In this document: one piece after another, positions 8,461-64,000 of the stretch | Layout of the letters: each line of letters starts with the position of its first letter | Position numbering within the stretch: the first letter of the stretch is position 1 | IMG/VR virus record: IMGVR_UViG_3300021255_000131 | Location: 32,001 to 96,000 of that record | Reading direction: 5' to 3' (one strand) | Source: a virus | Lineage: Duplodnaviria; Caudoviricetes | DNA: 64,000 bases | The notes under the pieces: model-generated | Seen by the model: only the letters and a program-made list of their open reading frames with translations | What the model was told of the DNA's origin: nothing | The model's database searches: none | Program-made: the position numbers and the translations under genes

Positions 8461-8474
8461 ATAACATCACTTCT

Positions 8475-8801
8475 TTATTCGAAGGGCTCGAACAAATCAG
8501 TCTCTGTGCCGAGCGCGGTATCCCAGCTCTGGCCGGCATAGCCGTCGATATCGTAGTGAATCTGCTGGCCTGTGAAGCCGGACCAGCTTTCGCCGAGATA
8601 CCTGCCGTTGGCGTCGTGATGAGTGTAATCGGCAAGCAATCCCGGATCAGAATAGCCGACATAGCCGCCGTTGGCGTCGTAGTGCTCGAAAGAGCCTGGG
8701 ATCAGCCCGGGACGGGACTCGCCGGCGTAATTTCCAAACTCGTCGTAATGGATCTTGCCGCCAAACAGGCCGTCGACACTGGTATAATGCTTGCCTTTCA
8801 T
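8475..8801 (-). CDS. Gly/Tyr/Asp repeat protein
   Basis: Four HYDxxGxYxGxS-type repeats. Confidence 0.7.
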   Translation of the reverse strand: MKGKHYTSVDGLFGGKIHYDEFGNYAGESRPGLIPGSFEHYDANGGYVGYSDPGLLADYTHHDANGRYLGESWSGFTGQQIHYDIDGYAGQSWDTALGTETDLFEPFE

Positions 8802-8804
8802 AGA

Positions 8805-11981: not shown

Positions 11982-11995
11982 AGCTTTTCACCACC

Positions 11996-14079: not shown

Positions 14080-14087
14080 CTTCTTTC

Positions 14088-18153: not shown

Positions 18154-18657
18154 TTATTGATGTAGTTTGGGTTTAGCATTGGACGACGTGAGATGATAGA
18201 AATGATCATCCCGCGTCAGGATCTCTGACATCAGAGGTTTCTTTTCCCAGAAAGCTTTGAGCCTGGCGAAGCCCTGGTCGGCCACCCTGCCAATATCCGG
18301 ATCGGGCACGCGCTTGATGAAGAGCGCGGGCCCTGTCTGATAGCCGGAAATATCGCACGGGAACCAGAACAGTCCGCCTTCCGGGTAGTATTTGCGCATC
18401 TTCTTGTTCTTGCGCCGGCCTGTTTGATACATCGTATCCCGCGTGCGGTAGCAGGAGAGAAAATCGATCATCTCCTCATGCCCGGTCAGCGTGGTGACAA
18501 GGACCTTCGGCATGGCGCCCAAGGTATTGTCCGGCTGAACGACGCGCCAGGGGGCGCGGCTTTCCGCCGTGCCCCTGGTTTTGCAGAGCACGTAAGAGGG
18601 AACGATGTTGCCTTTGCGCATATCCGTTTTCTTTACAATGGCGAGGTAGTAATACAT
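18154..18657 (-). CDS. hypothetical protein
   Basis: 167 aa ORF with AAGGAGG, overlapping end of RNAP-1. Confidence 0.7.
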   Translation of the reverse strand: MYYYLAIVKKTDMRKGNIVPSYVLCKTRGTAESRAPWRVVQPDNTLGAMPKVLVTTLTGHEEMIDFLSCYRTRDTMYQTGRRKNKKMRKYYPEGGLFWFPCDISGYQTGPALFIKRVPDPDIGRVADQGFARLKAFWEKKPLMSEILTRDDHFYHLTSSNAKPKLHQ

Positions 18658-21404: not shown

Positions 21405-21484
21405 GAAACCACCTCTTTTGAAAAGTAAAGCGGCATGTGCCGCTGGGTGCATCCGCGCTGACTTTTGCGCGGATGTAGGAAATA

Positions 21485-30274: not shown

Positions 30275-30509
30275 GTGATACCTCTTTCTGCCCGGCTAAC
30301 GGGCGTGATCAATATTGGCGTAAGCCGAAGTTTTAGAACCTGTAGCAGGTTCAAAATATATCGTTTAGCGCCGGAGCATTCGTCTGCAGCGCTTAACGAG
30401 CGTATTTGCCGGCCGCGGAAATTGTTTTCTTTTCCCGCAAACCTTTCATCATGGCTGCGGCCCGTCCCCGGGCCGCCCTGCTGGCGTAAAGACCAGCTGG
30501 GGAGGGGCG

Positions 30510-30689
30510 TCAGGCTTTCAATAAGCCGGTCGCAGGAAGCGGCGCTTTCTCGCCGAGATATTTGCTGAGCGTTCTGGCGATCTTGAGCCACGCTTCTCTG
30601 TCGTGTTCTTCCCTGGCGATCTTGTTGAGCACGCAGCCCATCGTCGGGTCGAGCTGCTTGGAGCCGTTGTAATACAAGCTTTTATCCAT
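30510..30689 (-). CDS. small hypothetical protein
   Basis: MDKSLYYNGSKQLDPT after AAAGGAG. Confidence 0.6.
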   Translation of the reverse strand: MDKSLYYNGSKQLDPTMGCVLNKIAREEHDREAWLKIARTLSKYLGEKAPLPATGLLKA

Positions 30690-30858
30690 ACGACAATCTC
30701 CTTTCAGGCTACGTAAACCTTTCATCCTGGCTGCGCGGCGTCCCCGCCGCGCCCTGCTGGCGTAACAACTGCCGGGCAGCGAAAATAAAGCACTTGTGCC
30801 GGCTTTCTATGGTTAAAAAAGTGAACTTAAAATGCGAAAAATGTAACAGAAATTTAAC

Positions 30859-30887
30859 TTGACAGCGATTTTTCGCGGCAGTATAAT
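30859..30887 (+). promoter_or_regulatory. consensus sigmaA promoter
   Basis: TTGACA-17-TATAAT, AT-rich upstream element. Confidence 0.8.
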
Positions 30888-31040
30888 GGAATCCCGAGAA
30901 AAACCACCATGGTGCCGCCCGTCCTCGGGCGGCGTTGCCAAGAAGATAGAAACGAGCCAAGCAAGAACAGTGAACATTAGCTTGGCCGGCTTAAGGCGAG
31001 ATATGGTTATAAACATGTATAATCTGGTACCAGAAAATAC

Positions 31041-31076
31041 TGTCGACATTCAAGAATCGATATATATGGAAAGAGA
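31041..31076 (+). promoter_or_regulatory. 28-bp conserved element, copy 2
   Basis: TGTCGACATTCAAGAATCGATATATATG-GAAAGAGA; one mismatch in 36 bp versus 41248-41283. Confidence 0.7.
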
Positions 31077-31637
31077 AGCCCAAAACGCAGAAGTACGCGA
31101 ATCGCGTGAAGCGCGATTCGCCTGATAACTACACGACGGTTAAAAGATAACCGAAGTGAAGCTGACAGGACGGCATTGAATAAAGCGTCGTTCCCATGGA
31201 AGGAACGACGCGCTGAAACAGTGAAAACTTAGGCTTGAAGAGAAACGCAGGACCTGCATAACAGGACCTGCAATGAAAAATATCTCCCGTCGCCCATGGA
31301 AGGCGACGGGAGGGTGATGAAGATAACATGTCTAAAGAAAGAAAAGAACCTCGAAGCTGACACGCTGAAGTCAAAAGAAAGAAACGAACTTTCTTTCTTT
31401 TCAGGCACGATGAAGATAACTACAGAGGGTAGAGAGATAACACCTCCTCGATATAGGAATAAAAAAGGAATCAAAAGGACAAAACTGTGAAAGAACTACT
31501 CGTGCTTCTGAGTAAACACAAGATATTGTATCCGATTCCCCTCCTTTCTACTACATCTTGATATATCTCCAATATTGCTGATATATCACCTCTTTTCCTG
31601 TTATCGTTCGGCATGGTTTTAAGTTAGCAGTGTAAAT

Positions 31638-31672
31638 AGGGGAGCGCCGGTGAAGCGCTCCCCTTATTTTTT
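31638..31672. terminator. probable bidirectional terminator
   Basis: aggggagcgc/gcgctcccct stem with T tract on + strand, right after stop of minus-strand gene. Confidence 0.65.
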
Positions 31673-31973
31673 ACATATGCACGTCGTAGCCTTTCAGCCA
31701 GTCAGGATTCACCGCCATTGTATCCGCTAACACGGTGAACTTGTCATCTTTCGGGCAGTACTTTTCATGTTCGTAGTTGTAGACATCCTGGTATGAAATT
31801 CTGATGCCGGATCCGTTGGCTTTCAGGTTTGCCATTTTGACGAGCTGTATTCTGGACATGGGCTTACCGTCAACACCGTGCATCGTTCTCCACTGGATAG
31901 AGCGTTGGCCGAGCGTAGCAACTTTGTGGGTGGACACTCTGCGATAGGCTACCGAATTGTAGGGATACATCAT
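31671..31973 (-). CDS. XRE-family HTH regulator
   Basis: ISYQDVYNYEHEKYCPK...LADTMAVNPDWLKG. Confidence 0.75.
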   Translation of the reverse strand: MMYPYNSVAYRRVSTHKVATLGQRSIQWRTMHGVDGKPMSRIQLVKMANLKANGSGIRISYQDVYNYEHEKYCPKDDKFTVLADTMAVNPDWLKGYDVHM

Positions 31974-31988
31974 AATACGTTTCCTCCT

Positions 31989-32399
31989 TTACGGGCGCGG
32001 CAGTGATACTGCGTTCCATTCACGGGCAAGAGACTCGCCTTTGGCTTTCGACCAGATATAGCCTATTAGCCGGCTGTCGTTGGTAGCATGGTTGGTCCAG
32101 CCGACACGATACGCTGATTCGGGCATGATGGCGTGATCATACTTGCCGATTTCACGGACGTCTCCTTCATCGAAGACGATCTCGTGAAACACGGGCTTGA
32201 AGATTGTACGATCGTACTTGTTATCGGCGTGCGATGGGAACTGGATGAACATCGATCTGTCATTGACGATCTGCGTGCGGTATTCGGTGTCACTGACCTT
32301 GTGAAATTCACCAAGTCCTTTTGCTCCGGACATTGCTGTGACGATACTCATCACGTCCGGTTCATCAATCTCTGGTACGACGACTACTTTTCTCTCCAT
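31989..32399 (-). CDS. hypothetical protein
   Basis: 136 aa ORF with AAAGGAG. Confidence 0.65.
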   Translation of the reverse strand: MERKVVVVPEIDEPDVMSIVTAMSGAKGLGEFHKVSDTEYRTQIVNDRSMFIQFPSHADNKYDRTIFKPVFHEIVFDEGDVREIGKYDHAIMPESAYRVGWTNHATNDSRLIGYIWSKAKGESLAREWNAVSLPRP

Positions 32400-32477
32400 A
32401 AAAAACTCCTTTCAAACCTGAAGTTAAATATCATCATGGTCCCCGCCCGTTTCCGGGCGGGGCAGTGAACAGCCTCG

Positions 32478-32825
32478 TTACGGACGATTGTAGCGCGCGG
32501 TGCTGACTTCCGCGACGCGGCGGGTGACGATGAGTTTGCTGGATCCATAGCCGCAGAGCCAGGACGTGCTGACGCCCATGACCTTGCACAGGACGGTCAT
32601 GTTGTTCATCTTCGGCGTGCAGCGGTTGTGCACGTACGAGTTGATGATGGACTTGCTGAAGTTGACGCCGTAGTGGCGGCCATAGACGTTGCAGGCCCTG
32701 GTGAGCTCCGCCTGCGTCGTGCCGGTCTGGATGAGCCAGGCCTTGATGCGATCACCGATATACTCGGTGCGTTTGGTGTAACCGTGTTCCATCTTCTGCC
32801 ACGAGCAACTGTAAGGCTTATTCAT
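32478..32825 (-). CDS. XRE-family HTH regulator
   Basis: TQAELT...SKSIINSYVHNRCTP...GVSTSWLCG. Confidence 0.8.
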   Translation of the reverse strand: MNKPYSCSWQKMEHGYTKRTEYIGDRIKAWLIQTGTTQAELTRACNVYGRHYGVNFSKSIINSYVHNRCTPKMNNMTVLCKVMGVSTSWLCGYGSSKLIVTRRVAEVSTARYNRP

Positions 32826-32998
32826 GTGTGTTACCTCCCAAGATTATTGAAGTGATGACTTCACCATGGCGCCGCCCGTCCTCGGGCGGCATTCAGCATC
32901 AGCCTGCTGAACCAGGCTTCGAACGGTCAACAGGCATGTTACGAGAAAAAATATAGGGCCCCGCAAAAATAGGGGACCCTCATACATAGACGGTGTGC

Positions 32999-33466
32999 TT
33001 ACTTAACGGGCGTCACTTCGATCAACTGTAGTTTCGCCAGATCACGCTGGGCGCAGGCTTCCTCGTCGCAGCGCTCGTTCAGGGGATGACCGGCATGACC
33101 CTTCACTTTAGTGAAGGTAACCTGATGGATGTCAAGCTGGTTCTTGAGCGCGGTCCAGAGATCGACATTCTGGACAGGCTTCTTATCCGCCTTGACCCAG
33201 TTGTTGGCGATCCACTTGTCTAAGTAGCCGCCGTTGATCTGGTCGACGATATAGGCCGAGTCCGTGAGGACTTCAACTTCACAGGGAAAATGGAGCTCCT
33301 TGAGGCCGCGCACGACGGCTCTCAGCTCCATGCGGTTGTTGGTGGTCTGTGGGCTATTGCCGGAGACCATCATTTCACGGTCTTGACACTGCAGGATCGC
33401 GCACCAGCCCCCGGGGCCTGGATTGCCGGAGCACGCGCCGTCTGTAGCGATGGTCACGTGATACAT
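32999..33466 (-). CDS. rnhA: ribonuclease HI
   Basis: TDGACSGNPGPGGW, TTNNRMEL, TDSAY, VQNVDLW, VKGHAGHPLNERCD. Confidence 0.95.
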   Translation of the reverse strand: MYHVTIATDGACSGNPGPGGWCAILQCQDREMMVSGNSPQTTNNRMELRAVVRGLKELHFPCEVEVLTDSAYIVDQINGGYLDKWIANNWVKADKKPVQNVDLWTALKNQLDIHQVTFTKVKGHAGHPLNERCDEEACAQRDLAKLQLIEVTPVK

Positions 33467-34289
33467 AAGATGTCCTCCTTAACGAAAATCGCGGCGGACC
33501 CTTTGCGGGTGCCGCCGCTTGTTGTAATTGAGACGCCAGCGCGGGAAGCGCTGACGCAGATTCCAGATGGCTTCAGTAGATTCGAGCCAGATGATGTCGC
33601 CGAGGATCAGGATGGTCAGGGCGGCGACGATGATGAACAGCGTCAGCATTTAGTCACCTCTTCGATGACGACGAAGCTGAAGCTTTCGCAGCGGCCCATT
33701 GTGGTGACCCAGTCATAACGAAGCTCGGCGTTGTGTCTGGTTTCGTCATAACCGTGAATAATGAATCTACCGTCGGACAGATACTCGATGACTTTGAACA
33801 TATACAGATCCTCCTTCTGCATTGCAATAAAATAAGCGCTGTGTGGCCAGCGCTAACCCCGGCGAGGCTTTTCGGGTCACCGATCCCGCTGCGGTTTATC
33901 GCGGTACGCAGGATATACCGGAAGAGCCTTACGTCTTCAGCCCGGTTGGCCAAAGGCGTAAAACTATTCATCATGGCCGCGCGCCGTCCTCGGCGCGCAT
34001 CTTGGGATACATTTTGCCGGAGAGTGACGATGCACAAACACCGCACAGACCGGACAGGAGTGCAATAATGCATTCGCCATGGCCGCGCGGTGTCCCCAAC
34101 GCGCTTAGCTTGGAAGTGAAGACGTCCAGCAACGCTCATAAATTGTAAGGATAGAAAGACGTCATCATAGAGGCAGGCAAGAATATGGGGAAACGCGGAG
34201 AGCTGGATCAGCCTGCATAAATTATGCAGAAAATTCGACAGGAATCACGCTTCAGCACCCGGAGACAGCACGCAGATGAAAACAGCGAG

Positions 34290-36267: not shown

Positions 36268-39081
36268 TCAGAAGTCCATCCCAGCCAGCCAGGAAGGTAA
36301 TGCTGCCTTCCTGGCCTTTTCTTCGTGCGCTTCAACGCATTCCTGGCGGAACGTCTTCTCCGGAATAACGGCGGGCAGTATGGTACGCTCCTGTTTGTTT
36401 TCAGCGAGGATATCGCCGAAGCACTCCAGAATCGCCATCAGGTGACGCGCGGCGAACTTCTTGTTCCATTTGTCGTGGGCATGCGCCACATGCTGACGCA
36501 GAATCGCGGCGGCAGTCCAGCGAGCCAGCTCGTCGTCGGACATGTTGCCCTTATTGACACCTTGCATGAACGCAAGCGTCTCGTCGCGGACGTACTTGTA
36601 AGCGCTCAGCATTGCCTCTTCGTATTCAGCCGCTTCAAACGACGCTTTCGCGATCTTCTGGACTGCGCTGCTCAAAGTTTCGAACAAGAAGTAGATCGAA
36701 TATTTTGTGTCTGCTGCGAAGACCTCCTTGCCGAGCATGTCGTTGTATTCCTTGACCTTTTCAGCAGGAAGCACGTCGTTGCGCACCATGCGCACGTTTG
36801 CGCTGCAGCCGCCAGGCATCGCGATTTCCCAGCGGTAATCGATCTTACTGAAGTCCGGCGCCCACTCGGAACCGCCGATGATCAGGTTGACCTGGTGGCC
36901 GAACCGATCTACGATGGACTCTGATTCGGGCAGGGTTTTCTCGTCCCATCTCTGGTCGTTCCAAGGAGTTTCATCACAGTGTTTTGCAAACCGCTGGTTG
37001 TAAGGCATCGCGTTATAGTTTTGCCCGACGGTGCGAGCGATTTCCCGGAGCGCCTGCGGAAGCACGCCCGTCTTGATGTAGTCCAGAATCAGGATGGTCA
37101 GCACGTGCGGGATCGCCGCAGTTTCCAGGATGCCGCTGATGACGGAAGGATCCATGTCGATCCTGCAATCGTTCAGGATCTTGGTGCAGAGGTTGGAGTA
37201 GACGCCAACCTCGTTGTACCGTTCAGCGTCGATCATCATCTGAGCAGTCTGATTCTGCCACTCGTCCGTCTTGGGCAGCTTGCCCTTGGGTGCTTTGTCG
37301 TGGTCGAAGATCACGCAGGGCGGATTGACGCGATTGATGACTCGCTCCATCAGGGAGACGAGCAGCGGATTCGAGGACCAGAAGCCCTCGTCTCCGTCGT
37401 TGTCACCGTCCCAGTAGCCGGACAGAACAGTGCTGTTCCACGGCAGGATCATCATGTTGCCGCAAACGGCGAGCTCATCGTGCACCTCTACGTGAAGCAC
37501 ACGAGCGTTCAGCAGGTTGGCGGGATGGCGAATACCATAGATTTTCCGGCCATTTTCTACGCCGGTGACGCAGCAGGTCTTGCTGCTGTTGAAGACGCCG
37601 ATCTTCTCCTTGGCCGGGTCCTTGCCAAAGACCCAGACGTCGATCAGGGCGTAGGGGTCCATAGCAATATATTCATAATGAGATTCTTCGATTGCAGGCG
37701 AGATCATTGCGTCTGCGTACTTGTTGTTAAACAGGTCTTCCAGGTGGTTGATGATGTCTTGATTTGCCACATAGTCCGGGAAAGCGCGGAAGAACTTGGC
37801 GGCGTTGCCGCATTCCTCCTCGTCGGCCCAGGGTTTTTGTAGTTCCTTTACACAGCCTTCAACTGTTTTCAGCTGCTTTACGCAAATGGCCTTAGACGTA
37901 CCGAGCTTCCTAAGCTCGGCGTTGCTGGTGTAGACCAGCTCCTGCAGCGCCTGGCGGGAGAGATTTCGTTTGTCGCCTTCTGCCTTGTTGGCGAAGCCGC
38001 ACACACGCAGCTCATCGATGCCGAGGGTTTCGAACGTGGTCCGATAGTCGTCGAGGCTATCAAACCATTTGAGGCCTTTGCAGCACGACTCGCTGAGAAT
38101 GATATAGATACCATCAGTCGAGCGCCAAATGCCCTGATAATCTTTGATCTTATCCGGTATATTCTCGACGATGGCGACGACGGCCATTGTCTTGTTGGTG
38201 CCGAGGCGACCCTGAAGGGAGAGGAAATTCTTGGTATCCTCGAGGCTACGAGCGATGATTACGGACTGACCGTCGGCGATTGTTGCGTCCTCTTCGGATT
38301 CGGGAACGTATTTGATTGCGCCGGTTTTGGCGTCAATTTTCAACACGTTGGTATACTTCAACTGCCAGTTGAAGTCCTTAACGATGATCGCGTTCTTCAA
38401 CGCTATCTTCTTCAAACCAAACCGACTGACCGGCACGCTGCCGGAGAACAGCGTGCTAAGTACTTTGTTGTATTCTACGGGGTTGGTGCCCCTGTCGAAC
38501 TGCTCCTTGGTGCGGAGCAGCGCGAGCTCCTTCTTGTATTTGGCCTGAATGTCGACGCGAATAAGAAGAGATTTGCCGACCTTCAGGTAGGAAGGCGTTG
38601 AACACAAGTATTTCCAAACAAGCTGGCCAGACTGGATGCCCAGCTTCTGCAGGTTCTTGCCGACCTGCTTTTTGATTTGGCCGACAAGGAAGAAATATTG
38701 TTTTGCTTGATCCGCTGTGAAGTGGATTTCACAATTGAATTTCAGAAGGTTGTATAAGTGGTGTTCGAGTACGACGACGCTGTCGTCGAATTTATCGTAC
38801 TCAATGTGGAGCATATCAGCTCCAGCGGATTCATCCATTGTAATGACCTTGGGGTCATCAATGGAAATGGTGTAGGGAACGGTGCGCTCCCGCTCCAGCT
38901 TCAGGATTTGCTGGGCGGCAGAGATCATTTTCTGGCAGATGTTGTCTTTCGAGTATAACGCTTTATTGAAGATGTCTGTCTCTTCCTTCGGGAAGAAGGC
39001 GGCCTGGCTGAAGGACCAGGTCATATAATGTTGTTTATTCAGGGCGGGAGCTTCAATGGCGCGTTCGATAACCTTAGACAT
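36268..39081 (-). CDS. second YonO-like single-chain RNA polymerase (RNAP-2)
   Basis: IADGQS...LQGR..NK, LSRQALQEL, IRHPAN, WDGDNDGD (37390-37410), VGVYSN, LDYIKTG. Confidence 0.75.
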   Translation of the reverse strand: MSKVIERAIEAPALNKQHYMTWSFSQAAFFPKEETDIFNKALYSKDNICQKMISAAQQILKLERERTVPYTISIDDPKVITMDESAGADMLHIEYDKFDDSVVVLEHHLYNLLKFNCEIHFTADQAKQYFFLVGQIKKQVGKNLQKLGIQSGQLVWKYLCSTPSYLKVGKSLLIRVDIQAKYKKELALLRTKEQFDRGTNPVEYNKVLSTLFSGSVPVSRFGLKKIALKNAIIVKDFNWQLKYTNVLKIDAKTGAIKYVPESEEDATIADGQSVIIARSLEDTKNFLSLQGRLGTNKTMAVVAIVENIPDKIKDYQGIWRSTDGIYIILSESCCKGLKWFDSLDDYRTTFETLGIDELRVCGFANKAEGDKRNLSRQALQELVYTSNAELRKLGTSKAICVKQLKTVEGCVKELQKPWADEEECGNAAKFFRAFPDYVANQDIINHLEDLFNNKYADAMISPAIEESHYEYIAMDPYALIDVWVFGKDPAKEKIGVFNSSKTCCVTGVENGRKIYGIRHPANLLNARVLHVEVHDELAVCGNMMILPWNSTVLSGYWDGDNDGDEGFWSSNPLLVSLMERVINRVNPPCVIFDHDKAPKGKLPKTDEWQNQTAQMMIDAERYNEVGVYSNLCTKILNDCRIDMDPSVISGILETAAIPHVLTILILDYIKTGVLPQALREIARTVGQNYNAMPYNQRFAKHCDETPWNDQRWDEKTLPESESIVDRFGHQVNLIIGGSEWAPDFSKIDYRWEIAMPGGCSANVRMVRNDVLPAEKVKEYNDMLGKEVFAADTKYSIYFLFETLSSAVQKIAKASFEAAEYEEAMLSAYKYVRDETLAFMQGVNKGNMSDDELARWTAAAILRQHVAHAHDKWNKKFAARHLMAILECFGDILAENKQERTILPAVIPEKTFRQECVEAHEEKARKAALPSWLAGMDF

Positions 39082-50191: not shown

Positions 50192-51355
50192 ATGCCTAAT
50201 GAATACACTGTGATTCATGCGGAAGATCATGCTGCCGCATTATACGCGGCGCAGCTTCAGGCCCGCATCGACGAAATCGAAGCCAGCGGCAGCGCTGTTG
50301 ACGAGCATGGTGATCCGGTTACTATCGCCGCTGACCAGGTCGTTAAGTCCGGTACTGAAATCGGCGGCATTACGATTGGCAGTAAACGCACTGCCTTCTA
50401 TGCTCCTGAGGTGCAAGTGCCAGAAGCGTCCAAGGTTGTTGTAACACCTTTGACGAACACAGGCACAAAGATTGCAAATATCAAGGTCGATAACACGCTG
50501 CACTCAATCTACGCGCCGGCTGGTGAACAAGTAACAGTTACGCCTGCGCTGAGCAACGGTGTGGCCATTGGTACGATCAAGGTTGGTAATACGACAAAAA
50601 CACTGTACGCACCCGAAATCATTGACGATGGCAGCGGCGGCACAGTTGATATCAGCGGCAAGCTTGACGCACCGGCTACCCCCGGTACAAGCGGGCAAGT
50701 GCTTGCCACGAACGGCCAGGGCACTACCTACTGGACAAACAATGGTTCTGGCGGCGGTTCTACTGTTACAGTAACACCGCGGCTTTCAAGCGGCACAAAC
50801 ATCGCTACGATCACCGTCAACGGCACGGCGACGCAGCTGTACGCTCCGACGTCCGGTGGTGGTGGCTCTACTGTCGTGACCGGCGGCGGGGCGTTCCCGC
50901 TGCTGAAGTCTATCACGCTTGACGAAGATGTTTCAACCATCGTCATCAGCGAAGACGACGGTGGCAACGGTTTGAGTCTGACCGAAGGGTTCTTTATTCA
51001 GGCTGAGTTTGAACTCGCTTCTGAGAACCGCGCTCAGTATTTCAATGTTAGTCTTGGCAGCTCGGACAGCGAGAACAATGTGCCTGTGAGCACAAACCAT
51101 CGTCTCGACACGACCAGGTTCACTTATGCCGATATCTACGGTGTTCAGGTCGCTCCGCAGCAATGGCTTGTTGAAACACACACGAAGCAAGCAATGTACG
51201 ACGGCGCCACCGGCGTTGGCACAAATGTCGGTAACTTAAGCTATAACAACTGGAACGGTTTTAACAACCCGCCGGCTACAGTCAACCGTGTAGTGATCAG
51301 CTTCAACACTTCGCTGTTCGGCAAGAATACGAAGATCAAACTCTTCGGTCGGTAA
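50192..51355 (+). CDS. fibre-like virion protein with internal repeats
   Basis: Four GTxIxxIxV...YAP repeats, GQVLATNGQG..W motif, Gly/Thr-rich. Confidence 0.65.
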   Translation: MPNEYTVIHAEDHAAALYAAQLQARIDEIEASGSAVDEHGDPVTIAADQVVKSGTEIGGITIGSKRTAFYAPEVQVPEASKVVVTPLTNTGTKIANIKVDNTLHSIYAPAGEQVTVTPALSNGVAIGTIKVGNTTKTLYAPEIIDDGSGGTVDISGKLDAPATPGTSGQVLATNGQGTTYWTNNGSGGGSTVTVTPRLSSGTNIATITVNGTATQLYAPTSGGGGSTVVTGGGAFPLLKSITLDEDVSTIVISEDDGGNGLSLTEGFFIQAEFELASENRAQYFNVSLGSSDSENNVPVSTNHRLDTTRFTYADIYGVQVAPQQWLVETHTKQAMYDGATGVGTNVGNLSYNNWNGFNNPPATVNRVVISFNTSLFGKNTKIKLFGR

Positions 51356-53303: not shown

Positions 53304-55338
53304 ATGAGCACTTATATTGCCGCGTACAAAGGGTAAATAACATTGCCCCATATGACAGTGATGCCATATGCAAACTCACCTAAACGGAGGAAATCTTAAG
53401 CTTGGCAACTTAAGACTACTTACCGTGCTAAAGGTTGGAGATTGTTTACGATTGTTCCATGATTATAGGATTATGTAACCAATCAAAAGCCTAACGATCA
53501 TCCCTGATGGGAGTAGGGGCAAGTGTCCCGAAATGGTGAGCGTCTCATTGAGACGGTGATATGATCTACTCTGCATGGCGACATGCAGCTGCCTTATTGG
53601 CGGCAGAAGCTTAACGAACTTCTGCGAATAATAGGATATCGCTGACGTTCCGCGCGTGTGGTTCCGTCGTTGCGATGGCCGCATTTTCTATTTTGACGAA
53701 ATCACTCAGGCGAACGCCTCTCCTAACGTCCAGTATACCGAAATCAACGCCGGTTGGTCTCTGTTCCCCGTTGCGTACTTACCCGGTCAGTCTACCATGG
53801 AAATCTCCATGACCTCCGGTCAGTTCAACGCCGACCTGTTCGCGCTGGCAAATGGTTCCAACTTCAAGGCCGACGCCGCCTATACCACTTACACCACCGA
53901 GCACCTGACGGTCGACGCTACTTCTCACAGCATCACCCTCACCAATACGCCTGTGGCGCATAGCATTTCCATTGGCGGTATGGTTGAAGGTACGACCGCC
54001 GGCGCTGGCACTGAAGATACTGATAACCTCGACACCTTCGCGGTTGCCGAAAAGGTTATCACCCTGCCTGACGACGTCACTGGCGAAATCGAAGTTTCCT
54101 ATGAGTATGTCGTGACCGACGCGAAGGTTGCCGAAATCGACAACCAGACCTCCGCTATCGGCGAAGCTGTCTTCAAGTGGCCGGTATACAACTCTGGCGA
54201 AGACTGCACTGACGCCTCTATCAAGGGCTACGTTATCATGAAGGTGTACCGCTGCCGCGTCAGTCAGATGCCCGGTTTCGATACAAGCTATAAATCTGCG
54301 GCTTAGTAATATAGGCCCCTATAATAGAAATATTATTTGAACAACCTGCTTAAACGGGGAACGTCTCAAAAGAGATAACCTACCGTGCTAAAAGCATAAT
54401 TCCAAACGTCCTCAAGAAAGGACGTGTTTTATTATAGAAACGTATATTGTCTACATGCACGTGAATAAGATTAACGATAAAAAGTATATTGGTATTACCA
54501 AGAGAGAGCCTGACGAAAGATGGAAAAACGGAAGAGGCTATTCGAAGAACGTACATTTTTACAGAGCTATTAAAAAGTACGGATGGGATAACTTTAACCA
54601 TGTGATCCTTTGTGAAGGTTTGACAAAAGACGAAGCTTGCCAAACTGAAAAAGACTTAATTAAGAAGTATAAAACCACCGATGAAGAGTATGGTTATAAC
54701 AACTGTGCTGGCGGCGAGGGTGTTTCCGGATATCGCCATACGGAAGCAACAAAGAGAATTATTTCTGAACGTATGAAGGGTGAACATAATCCGAATTACG
54801 GTGGAGTACACAATACGCCGGAGCAAATGAAAAAACTTCTTGAAGCAAATTTAGGATTAAAGCATACAGAAGAACATAAGAAAAAGATTGGAGAAGCTCT
54901 TAGAGGACAACATTATCACGATGAGACGTTTAAAAAAGCATTATCTGAAAGAGCATCTCATCCAGTTCAAAGAGATGACGGTGTTATATACAAATCTGTT
55001 AAAGAGGCTGCGGCCGCGATGGGTGTTTGCCGCGCAGCTATCAGCCAATCGATCAAACGAAATCAAAAATCATGTGGATACGTTTGGAGTTATGTAAAAG
55101 CCTAACGACTATTCCGGAAGGAAGTAGAGCACAAGCGATTGGTGCTCGAAATGGCAGGGCTCTTCAATTTAAGAGCGTGATATAGTCTGCTCTGCACAGT
55201 GATGTGCAGCTGTACAACAGTACGGGCGCGGTGTAGCGAACCGCGCCGAACATAAGGACTAATAGCGTCACCTGGGCCACGATGGACCCGAAGCGTGACG
55301 ACGGCAAAGCGTACAGCATTGCCTACGTTGCTGCCTAA
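53304..55338 (+). CDS. major tail tube protein, three exons (53304-53334, 53636-54303, 55258-55338)
   Basis: Splicing gives a continuous frame MSTYIAAYKG-Y-IADVPRVWF...YKSAA-TNSVTWATMDPKRDDGKAYSIAYVAA. Confidence 0.8.
53335..53635 (+). mobile_element. group I intron, ORF-less (301 nt)
   Basis: Exon ends in U with P1 gggU/Gccc, terminal G, core AAGCCTAACGATCAT...GATATGATCTA. Confidence 0.85.
54304..55257 (+). mobile_element. group I intron with homing endonuclease (954 nt)
   Basis: P1 ggcU/Ggcc, terminal G, core AAGCCTAACGACTAT...GATATAGTCTG. Confidence 0.88.
54431..55105 (+). CDS. intron-encoded GIY-YIG homing endonuclease with NUMOD3/NUMOD1-like repeats
   Basis: YIVYMH...KKYIGIT...ERW, AIKKYGWDNF, GYN, HTEATK, HTEEHKKKI; motif begins upstream of ATG 54455. 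Confidence 0.85.
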   Translation: MIETYIVYMHVNKINDKKYIGITKREPDERWKNGRGYSKNVHFYRAIKKYGWDNFNHVILCEGLTKDEACQTEKDLIKKYKTTDEEYGYNNCAGGEGVSGYRHTEATKRIISERMKGEHNPNYGGVHNTPEQMKKLLEANLGLKHTEEHKKKIGEALRGQHYHDETFKKALSERASHPVQRDDGVIYKSVKEAAAAMGVCRAAISQSIKRNQKSCGYVWSYVKA

Positions 55339-55465: not shown

Positions 55466-55493
55466 AAAACCATAAGGAATGAAGGTGTCTGTA

Positions 55494-56302
55494 ATGCTCG
55501 CAGAAGAAAAGCCGGTTCCGGAAGTTTTAGAAGAAGAAGTTCCAAAGCCGGCGCCAAACAAAAAGAGAAAAGTAATTCCGAAAGAGAATACTGCGCTCAA
55601 GGAAACACCTGAAGAAAAGAAGCTTGATAAAGCAATGCCGGTCGAGGTGAATCCTGAAAACTGCGTTACTATAAACGGCGAGACGATTGAAATAAAGCCG
55701 ACGAAGCTGAAGTATCAGCGCAACCGTACGGCCGCCGCTTATCATATTCTCGAAGTCTATCCTCTCGCTGACATCTTAGCTTGGGACAAGGGCGTCGTTG
55801 ATCCAGAGCGTGACGGAGATCAGGTCGTATTTGATTTCCTGATTGCTGTGTTCGACAACAGCAAGCTTGTTGCCAGGCTATACGACTCAATGACGACTGG
55901 CGATATAGAACGCATCCTTCAGATTTTTAAGCGTCTCAATAAAATTCAAGAGAAAGAGGACGCGGCAAAAAACCGGGCGGCCAAGGAAACGAATCGTTAA
56001 GCCTTGACGAAGCCGTGGCTATGATTGCAGTTTACCTTGGCGAAACAAACGAAGACAACATCGACAATATGAGCTGGCCATTTTTCAACGACGTCTTGGC
56101 GGCTTTGGGTAAGCGCGTGAATTATGACGCTGTTGTCAACTATGCAGGAAACGCGTTTGCTAAAGACAGTTGGAAGATTATCCAGGAAGCTAATCCTATG
56201 ACGAAGCCTAAGAAGATGAGCACGAGCTTTATCGACATGCTGAGTAAACCGAACACGATGTCGAAGATCGAGGATCTTGGAGACTTGTCATGGGCGCAAT
56301 AG
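55494..56302 (+). CDS. tail assembly chaperone pair (G/GT type) joined by -1 frameshift
   Basis: Slippery A AAA AAC at 55967-55973; the -1 frame is open into ORF 56015..56302. Confidence 0.8.
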
Positions 56303-56681: not shown

Positions 56682-57317
56682 ATGATACAAGCGATTGAAA
56701 CGTACTATAAAGGCTATCGATTCCGTTCGCGGCTTGAAGCAAGATGGGCTGTATTCTTTGATGAATGCGGCGTTGTCTGGGAGTACGAAAGCCAGGGTTA
56801 CAAATGCAGTGACGGCACCTGTTATTTGCCGGATTTTCTGCTACACAATGTCGCCGGCCGTGTTAATGGAGATTTATACGTAGAAGTCAAAGGACAGATG
56901 AACGACGCCGACGCCAAGAAGATCAAAGCTTTCGTTGCAGAAGGCATGACCGAAGATAATAGATATACGAATACGCCTATATTGATTGTTGGCGATATAC
57001 CTTATGGAGATACGATCGACGATGTTATTGAATGCATCTTCGAACGCGCATACGATGATCATGAGAAGTGGCCAAACTTCTACAACTTTGAAACAATTGA
57101 CGGCGATTACTTTGCTGCTTATCCTGGTATCAATCGCAGAGGACAGTTTGAAATCTTCGGAGATGCCGTGCACTATCTTGGCAGAATGAACAGGCAGGCG
57201 ACAGAACAAGCTTATCGTACCGCCAGGCAGGCGCGGTTTGAACACGGAGAGAGACCAGTCCAAACGTATCAGAATTGGTCAGATACCACATTACTTACAA
57301 ACAGAAGATACAGATAA
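56682..57317 (+). CDS. PD-(D/E)XK-fold nuclease-like protein
   Basis: FRSRLEARWAVFFD, WEYE, YLPDF, VEVKG. Confidence 0.75.
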   Translation: MIQAIETYYKGYRFRSRLEARWAVFFDECGVVWEYESQGYKCSDGTCYLPDFLLHNVAGRVNGDLYVEVKGQMNDADAKKIKAFVAEGMTEDNRYTNTPILIVGDIPYGDTIDDVIECIFERAYDDHEKWPNFYNFETIDGDYFAAYPGINRRGQFEIFGDAVHYLGRMNRQATEQAYRTARQARFEHGERPVQTYQNWSDTTLLTNRRYR

Positions 57318-58087: not shown

Positions 58088-58414
58088 TCAGAACGGATAC
58101 TCTTCGCCGGCTTCTTTTTCAAAAGCAGCTTTGATTGGATGATCGTTGCCGTCGAAGAATTCAGGATACAAGACATGAGGTCTCATATTCCGGTTGGCGG
58201 CCATCAAATGCTTAGCAACGTTTAACTTGACAGCGCAGGGATCTGTAATGCCTAAACGCTCGCCGTAGACCCATTCTAACTTTTGAAGAAATTCTTTTAG
58301 AAGAATCGCAGGATCATCCTGAACTTTAGGAACATCGTGGGTTGCAAAATACTTTTCTTCATCGAAGCTGTCGATCATGTGCATGATGTCCGCCTGGTCG
58401 TCGTTGTAATTCAT
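58088..58414 (-). CDS. hypothetical moron protein ending EEYPF
   Basis: GGAGGTG SD; antisense to late operon. Confidence 0.65.
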   Translation of the reverse strand: MNYNDDQADIMHMIDSFDEEKYFATHDVPKVQDDPAILLKEFLQKLEWVYGERLGITDPCAVKLNVAKHLMAANRNMRPHVLYPEFFDGNDHPIKAAFEKEAGEEYPF

Positions 58415-58439
58415 AGGGCACCTCCATGTTTAATACGTT

Positions 58440-58928
58440 TTATATCATAAGGAACAAAGTATATGATTTCATTTTATCATCCAAACAATTCGTAATCCAG
58501 TTTGTGTAGTCGTGCACGCCAGTAGCTAAAGCGCTGTATAAAGTAACAGCGGCTGCTTTATCATAGATTCTACCATCTGGCAAGAAATAACTGTGTTCGC
58601 AAACCCAGAACGGGCTGTAAGATCTGTTTGCATGATTATAGTCGGCACACAGATAAAATAGATTACTATGGTAATTACCAAAATCATATATGATTTCCAT
58701 TCGCGCCAATACAACAAAATGATAGCTCGCATTACTACTTTTGTTTTCGTAATCGACGGGAAAACTACGACCAGGTGTAAGCGTTAAGTTTTTGTAGACA
58801 ACCTTATTCTTTGAGTCGAAGGTTTGAGCCATTCTGTTATAATCGTTTTCAATTAAACGCATATAAGTAGGATCAGATAGTGTAAACATGTAAGCATCGT
58901 TTAAACAGTCAAACAACCTCTGTTCCAT
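58440..58928 (-). CDS. hypothetical moron protein
   Basis: Own promoter TTGACT-17-TAGACT (58984-58956), AAGGAGGTG SD, AT-rich. Confidence 0.7.
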   Translation of the reverse strand: MEQRLFDCLNDAYMFTLSDPTYMRLIENDYNRMAQTFDSKNKVVYKNLTLTPGRSFPVDYENKSSNASYHFVVLARMEIIYDFGNYHSNLFYLCADYNHANRSYSPFWVCEHSYFLPDGRIYDKAAAVTLYSALATGVHDYTNWITNCLDDKMKSYTLFLMI

Positions 58929-59011: not shown

Positions 59012-62000
59012 ATGGCAGACGAAATTGAACTATCAGTACATATAGACAATCAACAAGCACTTATGTCGTTGACAGAATTAGAAGTCAAAGCCGGTGAGAT
59101 GAGTGAAAGTGTTCAGCAAATGCAATCTGGTATGACAACGCAGCTTCCCGGTTATGCTGAAGGTATGGCGTTTCAGTATTCTCAATTTCAAGACAACCTG
59201 CAACGACTCATCGACTTAAGGCGAAGTATAGATACTGCATCCAGCAGTTTCGATGCAGATCGTTTGACAGAATCATTTACAAGGTCTTTAAAAACTATCG
59301 AAAACGTTTATAAAGATTTTACCGAAAACTTTCAATTTTCCAAAACGATTGAAAGCAATCTGTCAGGCATGGGAGACGCTGTTAAGAACAATCTTCTTTC
59401 GTCTCTCAGAGAATTACAACCTGAATTGATTGGTGAACTACGGAAATTCGCAGCTTCGGCAACGCAGGCAGTCGGAGCACAAACAGATAAAAGCTTATTG
59501 AATATGTTTGCCGGCAGCGACGCATTTAAGAGACTACAGAGACAATTAACACAACGTACTTCTGCTTTTGGCGGTTCTGACGACAGCTCTCTGCATAATC
59601 TTCAAACTCTTGCAAAATTAAGTATGCCATTTGCTGTCGCTCAGTATAACAGACAACAAATCGTTGACTGGTTTGATAAGACCAATGCTCCCGAAACTTT
59701 TAGACAAATGCTTCCTAAAAGCTTTCAGACGATTCCGGCTTACCTTAAAAATACTCAACTCAGACAACGCGGGAGCAATGCTGCAGAAAACAGGCATTTG
59801 ACAAACGATGAGAAGAAGGCTTTAGAAAGTATTATAACATCTGATTCGTTTGCCCTTGATGCCGCAGTTTCTCAGGGTATCGCCAGAAAGCATAACGGAC
59901 GTATTTTTCTAAACGAATATACAACCAGAGAAATGATTAACGCTATGGCCGGACGTGTCATGCACGACATCGTCAACGGCGCTCAGGGCGAAGCGCGTTA
60001 TGGAATTACTGATGTTGAAGATCCAGATGTCTTTTATAAGATCATTCGCAAAAACAATAAGATGCTGACTGGCAGTTTACAAACTGCCAGAGTGATGAAC
60101 GATCGTTTTGGATCATGGTTGAATCCCGGATATTATGAAGCGTCTAAAGGTCGGTTTTCTGAAGGCGGCAAAGATTTAGGCACCGTTCGATTCGCACCGA
60201 GAATCGATACGCGCGCTTTTGCTGAATATACGCTCGATGAAATGAAACACGGCGCACAGTTCGACGGGCAACCAGTGACGGAAGAAGGAAGACCAGTCAG
60301 GCCAGAAGACTACCATCAGATCACATTGCGAGACAGTATTCATCACAGAAAATTACGCGCAACGCAGGCCGGTGACAATGTTGAACATAATGGTTTCAGC
60401 AGAAACGCTATCTACTTAAAAACTCCAGAAGAAGCTTACGATTATGAAACTTCACCTGAAAGATTAAAAGAAATAGAAAAAGATTTAGCCGAAAGAATTG
60501 AAAATGGTTATACTGTCAATGGCAGACATTATTCATACGTCAGGCACAATGCAACTCATGCCGAATTTGTTCTCGACGATATTATCAAAGAATTAGGCGG
60601 CGGGGATTTTGAAAAAGGCAGAAACGTATTTTTAAACGGTGCGCAAAGACGATATACGGATCCTGTCAAATTTCATAAGGCGTTAGATTATCAAAATAAG
60701 ACAGCTACCGACTCTCAAAGGATTGCTGACTTATATGGATCAGACTTACGTGGCGCAAAAGTAGTTGTGTCTAACCTTAAAGAGCTCGGTATGGACGGCT
60801 TCAATTTAATAAGTGATGAAATTGTTCCGGCCAGCTTTCAAGGCAGAGAAAATGAGGCAGCCGAAAAAGCTACATATGTTAAGTTCAATATGGCCGGCTT
60901 ACGAAAACTTTATAAAGATAAAATTGATAGTCAAGGCAATCTTGTTATCCCTAAAGCTGCGCCTGGCGGACAAGATTTAGTTATCGGGCCGGATGTTACA
61001 ATGATAGAAGACCAGGCCAACATAAAAAACTTTGATAGCCTGTATCGTGACAAAAAAGGAAATCTATTACCTCTTGAAGCAATTAATGCCGCCAGAAGCC
61101 AAGTTATGCAGCGCGGGGATCTTTCAGCCAAAGTAACATATGAAGGCGCTAATACTGAAAAAAGATGGTTGTCTCATCAGATGGTTCAGACTTTAGGTCC
61201 TGTTTTTACTCCTGAACTTCGGAAATACTTTATGCAAAATGTTTTCGATGAATTAGCTTCGCTTGGTGACGACGAAACTGTACGTAGGAAATTATTTGGC
61301 GGGCAAAATATTGATTTAAATTCTCCTGCTGCTCAGCAGACTATACAGGATTACAGAGATTCTATTTTTGAAAGAATATCTCAAGGTGACCTTTTGGGTC
61401 CTGAAGGCGGTATTCAATACGGAATGGCTGCGCCGTGGGTTCCCAGCATCGTCAACAAAGCATTGAAGCGTGCTGGAGTTTCGCTAACAAAAGAGCAGGA
61501 AAACGCTGCAATCGACGAAAACAACGTTTTATTCATGAACATGCTTGCCGATACGCTGGGCATTGTTCGCGCTCCGTATTCAGCAGAAGGCAACATTGTC
61601 GCCGGTAATGAAGCAGTAAAAGATAATTTTAAAGCATTGGTAAAAACGCTGGGCCTTGACCCGAATGGTTTATATATGGCGCCTGGCGCTCCAATGCTCA
61701 GCTTTATGCAAACAGAAGACTTTGACGGCGACATTAATGCTATCATGGACTTAAGCGGCCAAGGCGTTAGCCGGAATAATCCACGCTTTGCTGCCGCCAT
61801 GAATAAGCTAATGACAGACGCTCAAGCGTGGTACCAAAAAAACATTGTCGAAAGATCCGGCAGAACACAAGAAGAGCAAGAAGCATTAAAAGCTCAACGT
61901 ACCATTCAAGCTGCTAATCAGCCTGGTGCCGTGTTCGACATGTTTGATAGTAAAACCAACGCACACGAAATCATTGAAGGCGCGCAAGCCGGGCAAAAGA

Positions 62001-64000
62001 TGGGATTAGCCAACGCTGTTGACCGTAATGCATGGCAGTATGGTGTATCTCAACGTGTCGCAAGAGCTCACCGAGATTCAGCGTCTCACTATGACGCTGT
62101 TTCTACGTTTTTAAAAGAAAGAAACAATTTTGATTTAACTGAAGACGAACGAAAAATTCTCTCTGGCGGCGCTCCATTTGCGGCTATGTTTAAGTGGATA
62201 AACGATGCTTTAGAAGATGTAGATGGCAATCGGATGTGGACAGAAAACAGTCAAGCGCAATTCAATAAACATAATATTGATAAAGTGAATCTTCCCAGCC
62301 AGAAGCAAGGAGATATTCAAGCAGCTTTATATACAAGGTTTTTAGCCCATAAACAGGGCTTTGATATTAACGGCAAACTGAATTTAGATGAAATATTTGC
62401 TAAGTTACCTGAAGTAGATTTAAACACAGCTACCGGCAGAATGACTCAGCAGTTAAGAAATATACGGCGCGACATGGGCAAAGGTCTATATGTGGCTTTG
62501 TCTGATTCATTGGCCGAAGAAACAAAACTGATGAGTACAATGGCTTATAATGAGATCACAAGAGACGTTAATCAAGACAGTCGTTTTGTTACTACGAGCG
62601 ATAAAAACAAGGAAATTGCAAGACGGTTCAGAGAAGCTGGCGGAGAAGTAGCGAAAAACATAGATCAATTTGTTGTTACAGAATCTATTGCACGTGGTAA
62701 CCAAGATTTAAGAAATGAGTTAAAACAGCTTTCTGATTTATCTGGTCAACACTCTGTTTTTGGCACGAGCTATGGAATAACATTTAAAGAACCAGAAAAA
62801 GTCATTGAGCAGAACAAGCGAGAATTAGAAAGAATTGATAAAGAGAATCAAGAAAAACAACGTCGTGTTGATGAAATAAAAGCTAAACAGGCTGGCAATG
62901 GCCGCAGGCTTATTTCCGATACGGAATATATGATATATGATCCAAATATATCTAAAGAACAAAATATCAAAGAGCGAACTGAACATTTTAAAAAACAAGG
63001 TCTTTCTCAAGAAGCAATTGATAAAGATGCAAAAGCTGTTTCAGACTTGTATGATGCTATTGAATCAGGACAAATAATTGTAGATGACGGAAAGAATTCT
63101 AAGTTCAAGGTTAAAAACAATGGACAATGGGTCAACTTAGCCAATGAAGAGGTTGAAGAGCTCAAGCAATTAAAAACATTAACAACAGAGATCGGTGATA
63201 ACGACGAAAGAAAAGCAGCTATCGAACAGAATATTGATTTGGCCGAAAATCAGATTTCAGCAGCTTATAATTTTATAAAAGCACAAGAGAGGTTTAATGG
63301 CATACGGTCTAACGTTGGACAATTTACTTCAGGCCTCTATTCTTCTATTGCGAAAAAAGAAAATGAATTAGAAGGATTAAGCAAAGCGGATATATATTAT
63401 AACGATAAATGGAATATGGCTAATCGTCTTAGCAAAGAGTTGGACGCTTTTAGAGAATCGCAAGAATTTGCAGCGTTGAGTACGGACGATCAAGATACCA
63501 TTAATCGCTGGCTTTCCAAAGACAATGGTTTGTTTGCTTTAGTGGATAAAGATTTAGCAGAAACAACAGCGTTCAAGACTAAGAGAACGCTGGAGCAATA
63601 TCAAAAAAAGAATGTAAAGCATAATGGGAACGCTGCGATATTAAAAGATCGTTTTGAGGCATACGATAAGGATATAGAAAATTTAATAGGATATAGAGAT
63701 CTGTTAGAGGAACGTTTAGCTGCTGGCGGATTTGACGATAAAACAAGGGATCTGTTTGAAAAGCGATTGGTAGAATCAAATAAAAATATCACATCTGCGC
63801 AGGGCGAAGTTGGGCGACTGAAAGTTTCTGAAGCCACCGAAACATTAGATAAAATAAAAAACACTGTAATTAATGACCCATTTCAAAAACTAAAGCAAGG
63901 TGCTGCTGAAGCTAAGGTTCAAGTATCAGCTTTGGTTGATGTTCTTGCAAAAGTATACAAAGATCAAGGTTTAAATGATGCAGAAATAGAAAAGAAAATG
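59012..64000 (+). CDS. giant protein at tape-measure position containing a third YonO-like RNA polymerase domain (runs off right edge)
   Basis: Not in ORF track (no stop in window). AAAGGAGG + ATG 59012; in-frame GMDGF...FQGR...K (60794-), LSHQMVQTL (61169-), IVRAPY (61568), EDFDGD (61718-61732); helical flanks. Confidence 0.8.
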   Translation, partial: MADEIELSVHIDNQQALMSLTELEVKAGEMSESVQQMQSGMTTQLPGYAEGMAFQYSQFQDNLQRLIDLRRSIDTASSSFDADRLTESFTRSLKTIENVYKDFTENFQFSKTIESNLSGMGDAVKNNLLSSLRELQPELIGELRKFAASATQAVGAQTDKSLLNMFAGSDAFKRLQRQLTQRTSAFGGSDDSSLHNLQTLAKLSMPFAVAQYNRQQIVDWFDKTNAPETFRQMLPKSFQTIPAYLKNTQLRQRGSNAAENRHLTNDEKKALESIITSDSFALDAAVSQGIARKHNGRIFLNEYTTREMINAMAGRVMHDIVNGAQGEARYGITDVEDPDVFYKIIRKNNKMLTGSLQTARVMNDRFGSWLNPGYYEASKGRFSEGGKDLGTVRFAPRIDTRAFAEYTLDEMKHGAQFDGQPVTEEGRPVRPEDYHQITLRDSIHHRKLRATQAGDNVEHNGFSRNAIYLKTPEEAYDYETSPERLKEIEKDLAERIENGYTVNGRHYSYVRHNATHAEFVLDDIIKELGGGDFEKGRNVFLNGAQRRYTDPVKFHKALDYQNKTATDSQRIADLYGSDLRGAKVVVSNLKELGMDGFNLISDEIVPASFQGRENEAAEKATYVKFNMAGLRKLYKDKIDSQGNLVIPKAAPGGQDLVIGPDVTMIEDQANIKNFDSLYRDKKGNLLPLEAINAARSQVMQRGDLSAKVTYEGANTEKRWLSHQMVQTLGPVFTPELRKYFMQNVFDELASLGDDETVRRKLFGGQNIDLNSPAAQQTIQDYRDSIFERISQGDLLGPEGGIQYGMAAPWVPSIVNKALKRAGVSLTKEQENAAIDENNVLFMNMLADTLGIVRAPYSAEGNIVAGNEAVKDNFKALVKTLGLDPNGLYMAPGAPMLSFMQTEDFDGDINAIMDLSGQGVSRNNPRFAAAMNKLMTDAQAWYQKNIVERSGRTQEEQEALKAQRTIQAANQPGAVFDMFDSKTNAHEIIEGAQAGQKMGLANAVDRNAWQYGVSQRVARAHRDSASHYDAVSTFLKERNNFDLTEDERKILSGGAPFAAMFKWINDALEDVDGNRMWTENSQAQFNKHNIDKVNLPSQKQGDIQAALYTRFLAHKQGFDINGKLNLDEIFAKLPEVDLNTATGRMTQQLRNIRRDMGKGLYVALSDSLAEETKLMSTMAYNEITRDVNQDSRFVTTSDKNKEIARRFREAGGEVAKNIDQFVVTESIARGNQDLRNELKQLSDLSGQHSVFGTSYGITFKEPEKVIEQNKRELERIDKENQEKQRRVDEIKAKQAGNGRRLISDTEYMIYDPNISKEQNIKERTEHFKKQGLSQEAIDKDAKAVSDLYDAIESGQIIVDDGKNSKFKVKNNGQWVNLANEEVEELKQLKTLTTEIGDNDERKAAIEQNIDLAENQISAAYNFIKAQERFNGIRSNVGQFTSGLYSSIAKKENELEGLSKADIYYNDKWNMANRLSKELDAFRESQEFAALSTDDQDTINRWLSKDNGLFALVDKDLAETTAFKTKRTLEQYQKKNVKHNGNAAILKDRFEAYDKDIENLIGYRDLLEERLAAGGFDDKTRDLFEKRLVESNKNITSAQGEVGRLKVSEATETLDKIKNTVINDPFQKLKQGAAEAKVQVSALVDVLAKVYKDQGLNDAEIEKKM

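Follow-up and report, generated by a model that had tools for sequence, protein, structure and literature searches.

The giant open reading frame (ORF) that starts at position 59012 of the DNA stretch analysed here encodes a phage tape measure protein (TMP) whose N-terminal part is predicted to be an RNA polymerase (RNAP). The stretch, hereafter the window, is 64,000 nucleotides long and corresponds to bases 32001–96000 of the 111,048-bp IMG/VR record IMGVR_UViG_3300021255_000131, which derives from an uncultured phage. The RNAP and the tape measure core share one ORF at the siphovirus tape measure position, with the tail tube gene upstream and the gene for the distal tail protein Dit downstream, and relatives show the same layout. 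Structure prediction supports the assignment of amino acids (aa) ~397–1120 (60200–62371, + strand) to the YonO/QDE-1 clade of single-chain two-barrel RNAPs, with a complete catalytic site. This is not a new principle, as the concept is already established by gp96 of the Thermus phage P23-45 (PMC10770324). The protein described here is a new, probably independently fused variant of the TMP-fused virion RNAP first described in 2024.

Within the window, the frame opens with the ATG at 59012 and continues for 1,663 codons to the last position (59012–64000, + strand), in agreement with a first-pass annotation of the sequence that had reported more than 1660 open codons. Extending it beyond the window, as that annotation had proposed, yields an uninterrupted ORF of 5,918 codons (genome positions 91012–108768, window-equivalent end 76768), which occupies ~16% of the genome. 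PF10145 PhageMin_Tail matches aa 2025–2228 with an E of 2e-23, nine tape-measure PHROGs match aa ~1657–2799, and two hydrophobic segments (aa 2321–2348 and 2354–2380) make up a hairpin at aa 2321–2380. When aa ~1900–2900 were used in tblastn, the matches were annotated tape measure proteins, mostly from phages of Firmicutes (Bacillus, Enterococcus, Clostridium, Lactococcus). The gene directly 3′ encodes Dit (phrog_33; weak Sipho_tail match) and is followed by large tail genes, while terminase, portal, major head protein and tail tube genes lie 5′. The ORF thus combines the traits by which a tape measure is recognised, namely a PhageMin_Tail domain, hydrophobic segments, a long helical body and a position before Dit. 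Based on the domain and PHROG matches, the hydrophobic segments and the flanking head, tube and Dit genes, the giant protein is the TMP of a siphovirus whose genome measures ~111 kb and whose structural module is SPbeta-like. The first-pass annotation had left open whether the polymerase was fused to the TMP or replaced it. The fusion stands and the replacement falls, since the reading frame that encodes the polymerase goes on to PF10145 and the TMP PHROGs and is followed by Dit, not by a second tape measure gene. We also considered an assembly chimera as the source of the fusion. This was ruled out because the architecture is repeated in many independent assemblies, in which the giant ORF is seen again at 100, 96 and 62% identity and lower.

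Four RNAP motifs had been proposed in the N-terminal region, and all of them are found in frame and in the proposed order. GMDGFN...FQGR(x6)K spans aa 593–619; its second part, FQGR(x6)K (aa 609–619; 60836–60868), supplies basic residues of the first, beta-like barrel and aligns with F-x-I-R..K and LQGR..K of RNAP-1 and RNAP-2, two free polymerases of the same phage that are described below. LSHQMVQTL (aa 720–728; 61169–61195) lies in the inter-barrel connector and aligns with LNYQFIQTL of RNAP-1 and LSRQALQEL of RNAP-2. RAP (aa 853–855; 61568–61576) marks the start of the second, beta-prime-like barrel, where it aligns with RSP and RHP of the free RNAPs, and we take it to resemble NRAPTLH of bacterial beta-prime. 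DFDGD (aa 903–907; 61718–61732), the metal-binding catalytic loop, is the counterpart of DVDGD in RNAP-1 and DNDGD in RNAP-2. All four motifs are encoded on the + strand, and a DFDGD-coding pattern occurs once in the 64-kb window, with 0.01 expected. The likening of LSHQMVQTL to LNYQFIQTL and of RAP to the RSP of RNAP-1, made in the first pass, recurs as paired columns in the profile alignment.

To define the family, 1.84 billion representatives were searched exhaustively with HMMER using aa 380–1180 as the query, which yielded 59 homologue clusters with identities to the query down to ~25%. The full-length homologues measure 3,695–6,126 aa and always carry the polymerase domain at aa ~370–1350. 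Shorter matches are either small fragments or start at the same ~aa 380, as truncation of an ORF at the end of a contig would predict. Among the 1.84 billion representatives, the domain was not found as a full-length protein of its own. PF10145 is present in 10 of the 10 giant homologues listed by a word-based search. Conservation was counted in a 61-sequence domain alignment, in which the denominators vary by column. The three aspartates of DFDGD, on whose conservation the first-pass prediction depended, are invariant (D903, D905 and D907, 51/51 each), and G906 is kept in 49 of 51 homologues. R612 and K619 are likewise invariant (48/48 each), as are K672 and Q723 (47/47 each) and P855 (48/48), while Q610 and R853 are each found in 47 of 48. 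The retention of active-site residues at or near invariance among sequences of 25–35% identity argues for selection on catalysis.

At the level of single sequences and curated models, the domain is not recognisable. A Pfam scan of the first 1,663 aa with E values up to 1 returned no family, including PF05183 (RNA-dependent RNA polymerase, RdRP), and a PHROG scan of the same segment returned no match. Phmmer of these 1,663 aa against the PDB gave chance matches only, and a 9-sequence profile matched only designed helical bundles in the PDB, via its N-terminal helices. Pairwise BLASTP of the giant ORF against RNAP-1 and RNAP-2 was uninformative except for a 35-aa segment around LSHQ/LNYQ (E 0.058).

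The AlphaFold2 (AF2) model of aa 380–1180, built from a 28-sequence alignment, reached a pLDDT of 87.3 and a pTM of 0.84. A second model covering aa 1–1200 (pLDDT 86.4, pTM 0.82) predicts an N-terminal helical bundle at aa ~20–210 (59069–59641, + strand), which includes columns conserved across the family, then a mixed alpha/beta region and then the core at aa 397–1120, matching the same RNAP range. The flanks of the motif region are helical in the model, as had been suggested from the letters alone, and R612 and K619 are placed on adjacent strands (aa 609–613 and 618–625). The inter-barrel connector of ~230 aa is confidently modelled. The predicted fold contains the two double-psi beta-barrels on which the earlier prediction hinged, and the comparisons with QDE-1 and crAss gp66 suggested there both gave matches. 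The best match is QDE-1 (Foldseek E 1e-10, probability 1.00), for which VIA-align returned a Z of 19.4 over 522 residues at 4.1 Å, closely followed by RDR2 (Foldseek E 1e-8; Z 19.1 over ~500 residues). Next come the non-virion RNAPs P74 gp62 and P32 gp64 of phages (E 3e-5 and 1e-4; Z 14.2 over 440 residues for gp62), gp66 of phi14:2 (a crAss-like phage; E 7e-4) and P23-45 gp96 (E 4e-3; Z 10.9 over 366 residues). The barrel of cellular beta-prime and A190 is matched by aa ~792–1040 (E 0.08–0.5; Z 8–9 over ~130–170 residues). In the viral structure library BFVD, phage proteins with the annotation RNA-dependent RNA polymerase rank first (E 1e-14), ahead of large proteins of crAss-like phages and the 616-aa P23-45 protein A7XX94, which is probably the non-virion RNAP gp64.

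The phage encodes three two-barrel RNAPs, one fused to the TMP and two free ones. RNAP-1 (18633–21452, – strand) is a 939-aa YonO homologue with 37% identity to SPbeta YonO (E 1e-123), a PF05183 match (E 2e-5) and more than 1,900 homologues. RNAP-2 (36268–39081, – strand), located close to the head of the gene arm that runs leftward, is a YonO/RdRP-like polymerase of 937 aa. It has no Pfam match, is recognised by an Atlas feature score of 0.98 with TM values of 0.65–0.67 to PF05183 clusters, and aligns with the RNAP-1 family in hhalign with an E of 3e-25. The fused domain gives far weaker hhalign scores with the families of RNAP-1 (E 3.5e-4, probability 37%) and RNAP-2 (E 8e-5, probability 61%), although both alignments are colinear over ~380–416 columns and pair all four motifs. 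Combined with the predicted fold, these scores, weak by themselves, assign the fused domain to the YonO/QDE-1 clade, at a large distance from the two free paralogues and without any link to gp96 that could be traced. With no PF05183 match and only these profile–profile scores, we treat it as a new family of this clade and not as a member of PF05183.

Comparing the giant protein with that of P23-45 reveals the same general architecture. P23-45 gp96 is a 5,002-aa TMP with an N-terminal two-barrel RNAP (Chaban et al., Nat Commun 2024, PMC10770324). The polymerase has its DFDGD at aa 779–783 and was crystallised as residues 327–1124 (PDB 8H2M/8H2N); the N-terminus is an active RNAP that is present in virions, in which fragments of gp96 were detected (PMC10770324). 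It transcribes pre-early genes, among them the gene of the non-virion RNAP gp64, and is flat and clampless, a shape proposed to ease its passage through the tail (PMC10770324). Both proteins, gp96 (with its counterparts in P74-26, G20c and TSP4) and the present one, are giant TMPs (5,002 vs 5,918 aa) in which a single-chain two-barrel RNAP follows an N-terminal region of ~330–400 aa, with DFDGD starting at aa 779 and 903, respectively, and in which membrane segments and the ruler lie C-terminal of the RNAP. Each of the two phages has, in addition, one or more free two-barrel RNAPs of the non-virion kind.

At the sequence level, however, no kinship with gp96 could be detected. Hhalign against gp96 residues 1–1250 gave a probability of 0.3%, with the limited sensitivity of a single gp96 sequence, full-length BLASTP gave chance-level matches only, and tblastn of three family members against all phage records found none. 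Among the single-chain RNAPs with a Z of at least 10, gp96 is the weakest structural match (10.9 over 366 aa vs 19.4 for QDE-1). The connector spans ~230 aa and is ordered in our model, whereas that of the clampless gp96 is 67 residues long and disordered. Moreover, no metallopeptidase domain was found in the present protein, the phage has two free RNAPs instead of one, and its structural module is SPbeta-like and not Oshimavirus-like. Our literature searches found no description of TMP–RNAP fusions besides that of Chaban et al.

The closest likenesses of the enzyme lie elsewhere. With YonO and the PF05183 RNAPs it shares the clade, as judged by fold, and the colinear motif order DG / Q-x-R..K / L-x-x-Q-x-x-Q-x-L / R-x-P / D-x-DGD, and the structural-gene neighbours in relatives carry the SPbeta-named families YonB, YomU, YomW, YomX and YomG. 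In contrast, YonO is a free protein of ~800–940 aa that is not reported as part of a TMP, and the fused domain falls below the PF05183 model, with E values of ~1e-4 to the free copies vs 3e-25 between them. Neurospora QDE-1 and plant RDR2 are the top structural matches, with ~500–520 residues superimposed at 3.5–4.1 Å, but at only ~10% identity. Their C-terminal chain parts (beyond residue ~1181 in QDE-1 and ~970 in RDR2) are without a match, and as eukaryotic RNAi polymerases they belong to another biological context. The phi14:2 gp66 and N4 virion RNAP (vRNAP) also carry a polymerase within a giant virion protein, which the phage ejects into its host, and gp66 shares the two-barrel fold. Yet neither is annotated as a tape measure. 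Both come from podoviruses, which store them in the capsid, and the enzyme of N4 is T7-like and not two-barrel.

We consider it probable that the TMP-fused polymerase is ejected with the tail ruler and transcribes the first viral genes without the host RNAP. Virion delivery and early transcription are suggested by the gp96 precedent (PMC10770324); we infer that the protein is packaged and ejected, that its activity is DNA-dependent, and in which order the polymerases would act. In the proposed arrangement, the N-terminal fifth would comprise the helical bundle (aa 20–210), the mixed alpha/beta region and the two-barrel RNAP, and the rest would form a very long helical ruler, with the PhageMin_Tail domain and a membrane hairpin inside it. 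The fused protein would be built into the tail and, at infection, be driven out across the envelope before the DNA. As known from lambda gpH, the N-terminus of a TMP faces the head and its C-terminus the tail tip. Thus, the polymerase would leave last, beside the leading DNA end, and could there transcribe the pre-early genes, the first to enter, with no need for host RNAP, a role that has also been proposed for gp96 (PMC10770324). These genes would probably include one free YonO-like RNAP gene, whose product takes over afterwards. RNAP-2 is a candidate pre-early gene because of its position near the head of the leftward arm, and the resulting relay would run from the injected RNAP to RNAP-2 and then to RNAP-1.

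Several points weigh against this proposal. Packaging, activity and template preference all enter it by inference, and the family assignment itself draws on structure prediction together with profile scores that are weak (37% and 61% probability in hhalign). A folded globular domain of ~800 aa cannot lie in the lumen of a tail tube, and the rationale offered for gp96, a flat and clampless enzyme, may not transfer to a protein whose ~230-aa connector is modelled as full-length and well ordered. Furthermore, with two free RNAPs already encoded, a third is not obviously required. The misfit of the folded domain to the tail tube also speaks for a different fate of an active polymerase, in which the N-terminal part is cleaved from the TMP precursor late in infection and serves as a late, or non-virion, RNAP in the producing cell. 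In line with such a role, the gene lies in the late structural operon, and TMPs are processed in some phages. However, the fusion is invariant across the ~59 clusters down to ~25% identity, the search of 1.84 billion representatives contained no free full-length form, two free RNAPs are already encoded by the phage, and gp96 fragments are found in P23-45 virions (PMC10770324). We regard this fate as unlikely. Similarly improbable, to our minds, is that the polymerase travels with the TMP mainly to pull the genome into the cell by transcription, or for the synthesis of primers or non-coding RNA, and not for pre-early expression. Its N-terminal position should put it at the channel beside the entering DNA end, and Chaban et al. 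propose a coupling between transcription and translocation via the tape measure pore (PMC10770324). Nevertheless, no primase- or motor-specific feature was found, and such a role would be compatible with transcription of the first genes by the injected enzyme, not exclusive of it.

Doubts about the catalytic nature of the domain carry far less weight. It could be a catalytically dead relic that acts as an N-terminal plug or as a platform for TMP assembly, an idea that the missing sequence-level match to curated RNAP families would suit. Since the catalytic aspartates, the glycine, both basic residues and R-x-P are invariant or nearly so at 25–35% overall identity, we consider a dead domain very improbable. 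Hardly more credible, and if anything less so, is an RdRP that makes double-stranded RNA (dsRNA) or interferes with host RNA. The top structural matches QDE-1 and RDR2 are eukaryotic RdRPs, and QDE-1 is described as having both DNA- and RNA-dependent activities (PMC9508822). Against this stand the tested phage members of the clade, all of them reported as DNA-dependent: P23-45 gp64 and gp96 (PMC10770324), phi14:2 gp66 (according to the title of PDB entry 6vr4) and YonO (by annotation). Moreover, it is not evident why a double-stranded DNA (dsDNA) phage would require an RdRP when it enters the cell.

The one TMP-fused virion RNAP that has been characterised by experiment belongs to a small group of Thermus phages, and it might be taken for an oddity of thermophiles. 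Here, the same architecture is found on a different polymerase lineage, YonO/QDE-1-like and without detectable homology to gp96, in dozens of diverged uncultured phages of ~100 kb with SPbeta-like structural genes. This argues that delivery of an RNAP on the TMP N-terminus is a general strategy that has probably evolved more than once. More tentatively, we hypothesise that the fusion had an origin of its own, separate from that in the Thermus phages, through duplication of a YonO-like gene in an SPbeta-like lineage, and that a three-polymerase relay (injected, early, late) frees the whole transcription programme from the host RNAP; we hold this composite scenario as possible, with considerable doubt. 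If its origin was indeed independent, an RNAP on the tail ruler would be a convergent, recurrent solution among long-tailed phages. The family also offers a second, structurally different enzyme with which to ask how a globular polymerase is stored in and expelled via the tail and whether it transcribes the entering DNA. In addition, three two-barrel RNAPs in one 111-kb genome make a compact system for studying how promoters are partitioned between paralogous polymerases.

The phages that harbour the family are uncultured and have an SPbeta-like virion module. Neighbouring genes in relatives carry the SPbeta-named Pfam families YonB, YomX_C, YomW, YomU_Tube and YOMG_N, and the assignment of window genes to these PF27xxx families rests on their similarity to annotated relatives. 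For the major head protein, the nearest counterpart is the one in Geobacillus virus E3. Tblastn of three divergent family members against 50,697 deposited phage genomes gave no match, no prophage copy of the giant protein was found in reference genomes, and a locus search with the single giant protein returned only two near-identical IMG/VR contigs. Two distant relatives (L006 and L007) keep the gene order, in which the tube gene is followed by a conserved ~170-aa/~95-aa pair, some small genes, the giant ORF and then Dit. In the window this pair encodes proteins of 173 and 95 aa (55479–56302, + strand) and is syntenic with that of both relatives. The first-pass annotation had placed the giant ORF downstream of tail chaperones. 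As to position this is upheld, but the pair has no Pfam or PHROG match and its members are chaperone candidates by position only. Between the pair and the giant gene lie an endonuclease ORF, a 223-aa ORF and two unassigned minus-strand ORFs. The ORFs at 50192–51355 (387 aa), 56682–57317 (endonuclease-like, phrog_21138) and 58088–58928 (the two minus-strand ORFs) are absent from the syntenic regions of L006 and L007 and are likely mobile insertions.

The tail tube gene itself (whole 53656–55338, + strand) seems to be split. Its first part (53656–54306, + strand) is 46% identical to a PF27173 YomU_Tube protein of a related contig and matches phrog_2729, and the last ~20 codons (...TMDPKRDDGKAYSIAYVAA*), at ~55255–55338, match the C-terminus of the proteins of relatives. 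A GIY-YIG homing endonuclease ORF (54455–55105) lies between the two parts, and the insert is probably an intron carrying this endonuclease. An Rfam scan of 40–64 kb at gathering thresholds returned nothing, nor did it report a group I intron model where the tube gene is split. On the other side of the giant gene, two genes after Dit, a 717-aa protein of the tail module (L005, 2921–5074, + strand) contains a calcineurin-like metallophosphoesterase domain (PF00149, E 9e-6), which is unusual in a tail gene.

The physical packaging ends matter for predicting which genes enter first, and the ends of the record do not give them. Its 107-bp terminal repeat is an assembly overlap, so that the unique length is 110,941 bp, and a 1,294-aa ORF crosses the record ends (genome positions 109965–110941 joined to 1–2908; L002/L005). 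As this ORF spans the junction and the repeat measures only 107 bp, the record is a circularly closed assembly that carries no evidence of physical ends. A replication and nucleotide module on the minus strand (window 4772–15938) encodes the anaerobic ribonucleotide reductase NrdD, a DnaE-type Pol III alpha subunit of 1,058 aa and a Toprim-DnaB primase-helicase.

Finally, the minus strand at window 30454–33976 holds six perfect GC hairpins with stems of 8–9 bp and loops of AGGA, GGGA or GAAA. Each is followed after 1–2 nt by CCATG(A/G)TG (CCAGGATG in one copy), and the stem sequences vary while their pairing is kept. No further hairpin-CCATG site with a purine-rich 4-nt loop was found in the 111-kb genome. 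The ATG of these sites was considered as the start codon of leaderless early mRNAs, which was ruled out because four of the six frames stay open for only 7–19 codons. The hairpin-CCATG elements could act as promoters or as RNA signals for one of the RNAPs of the phage.

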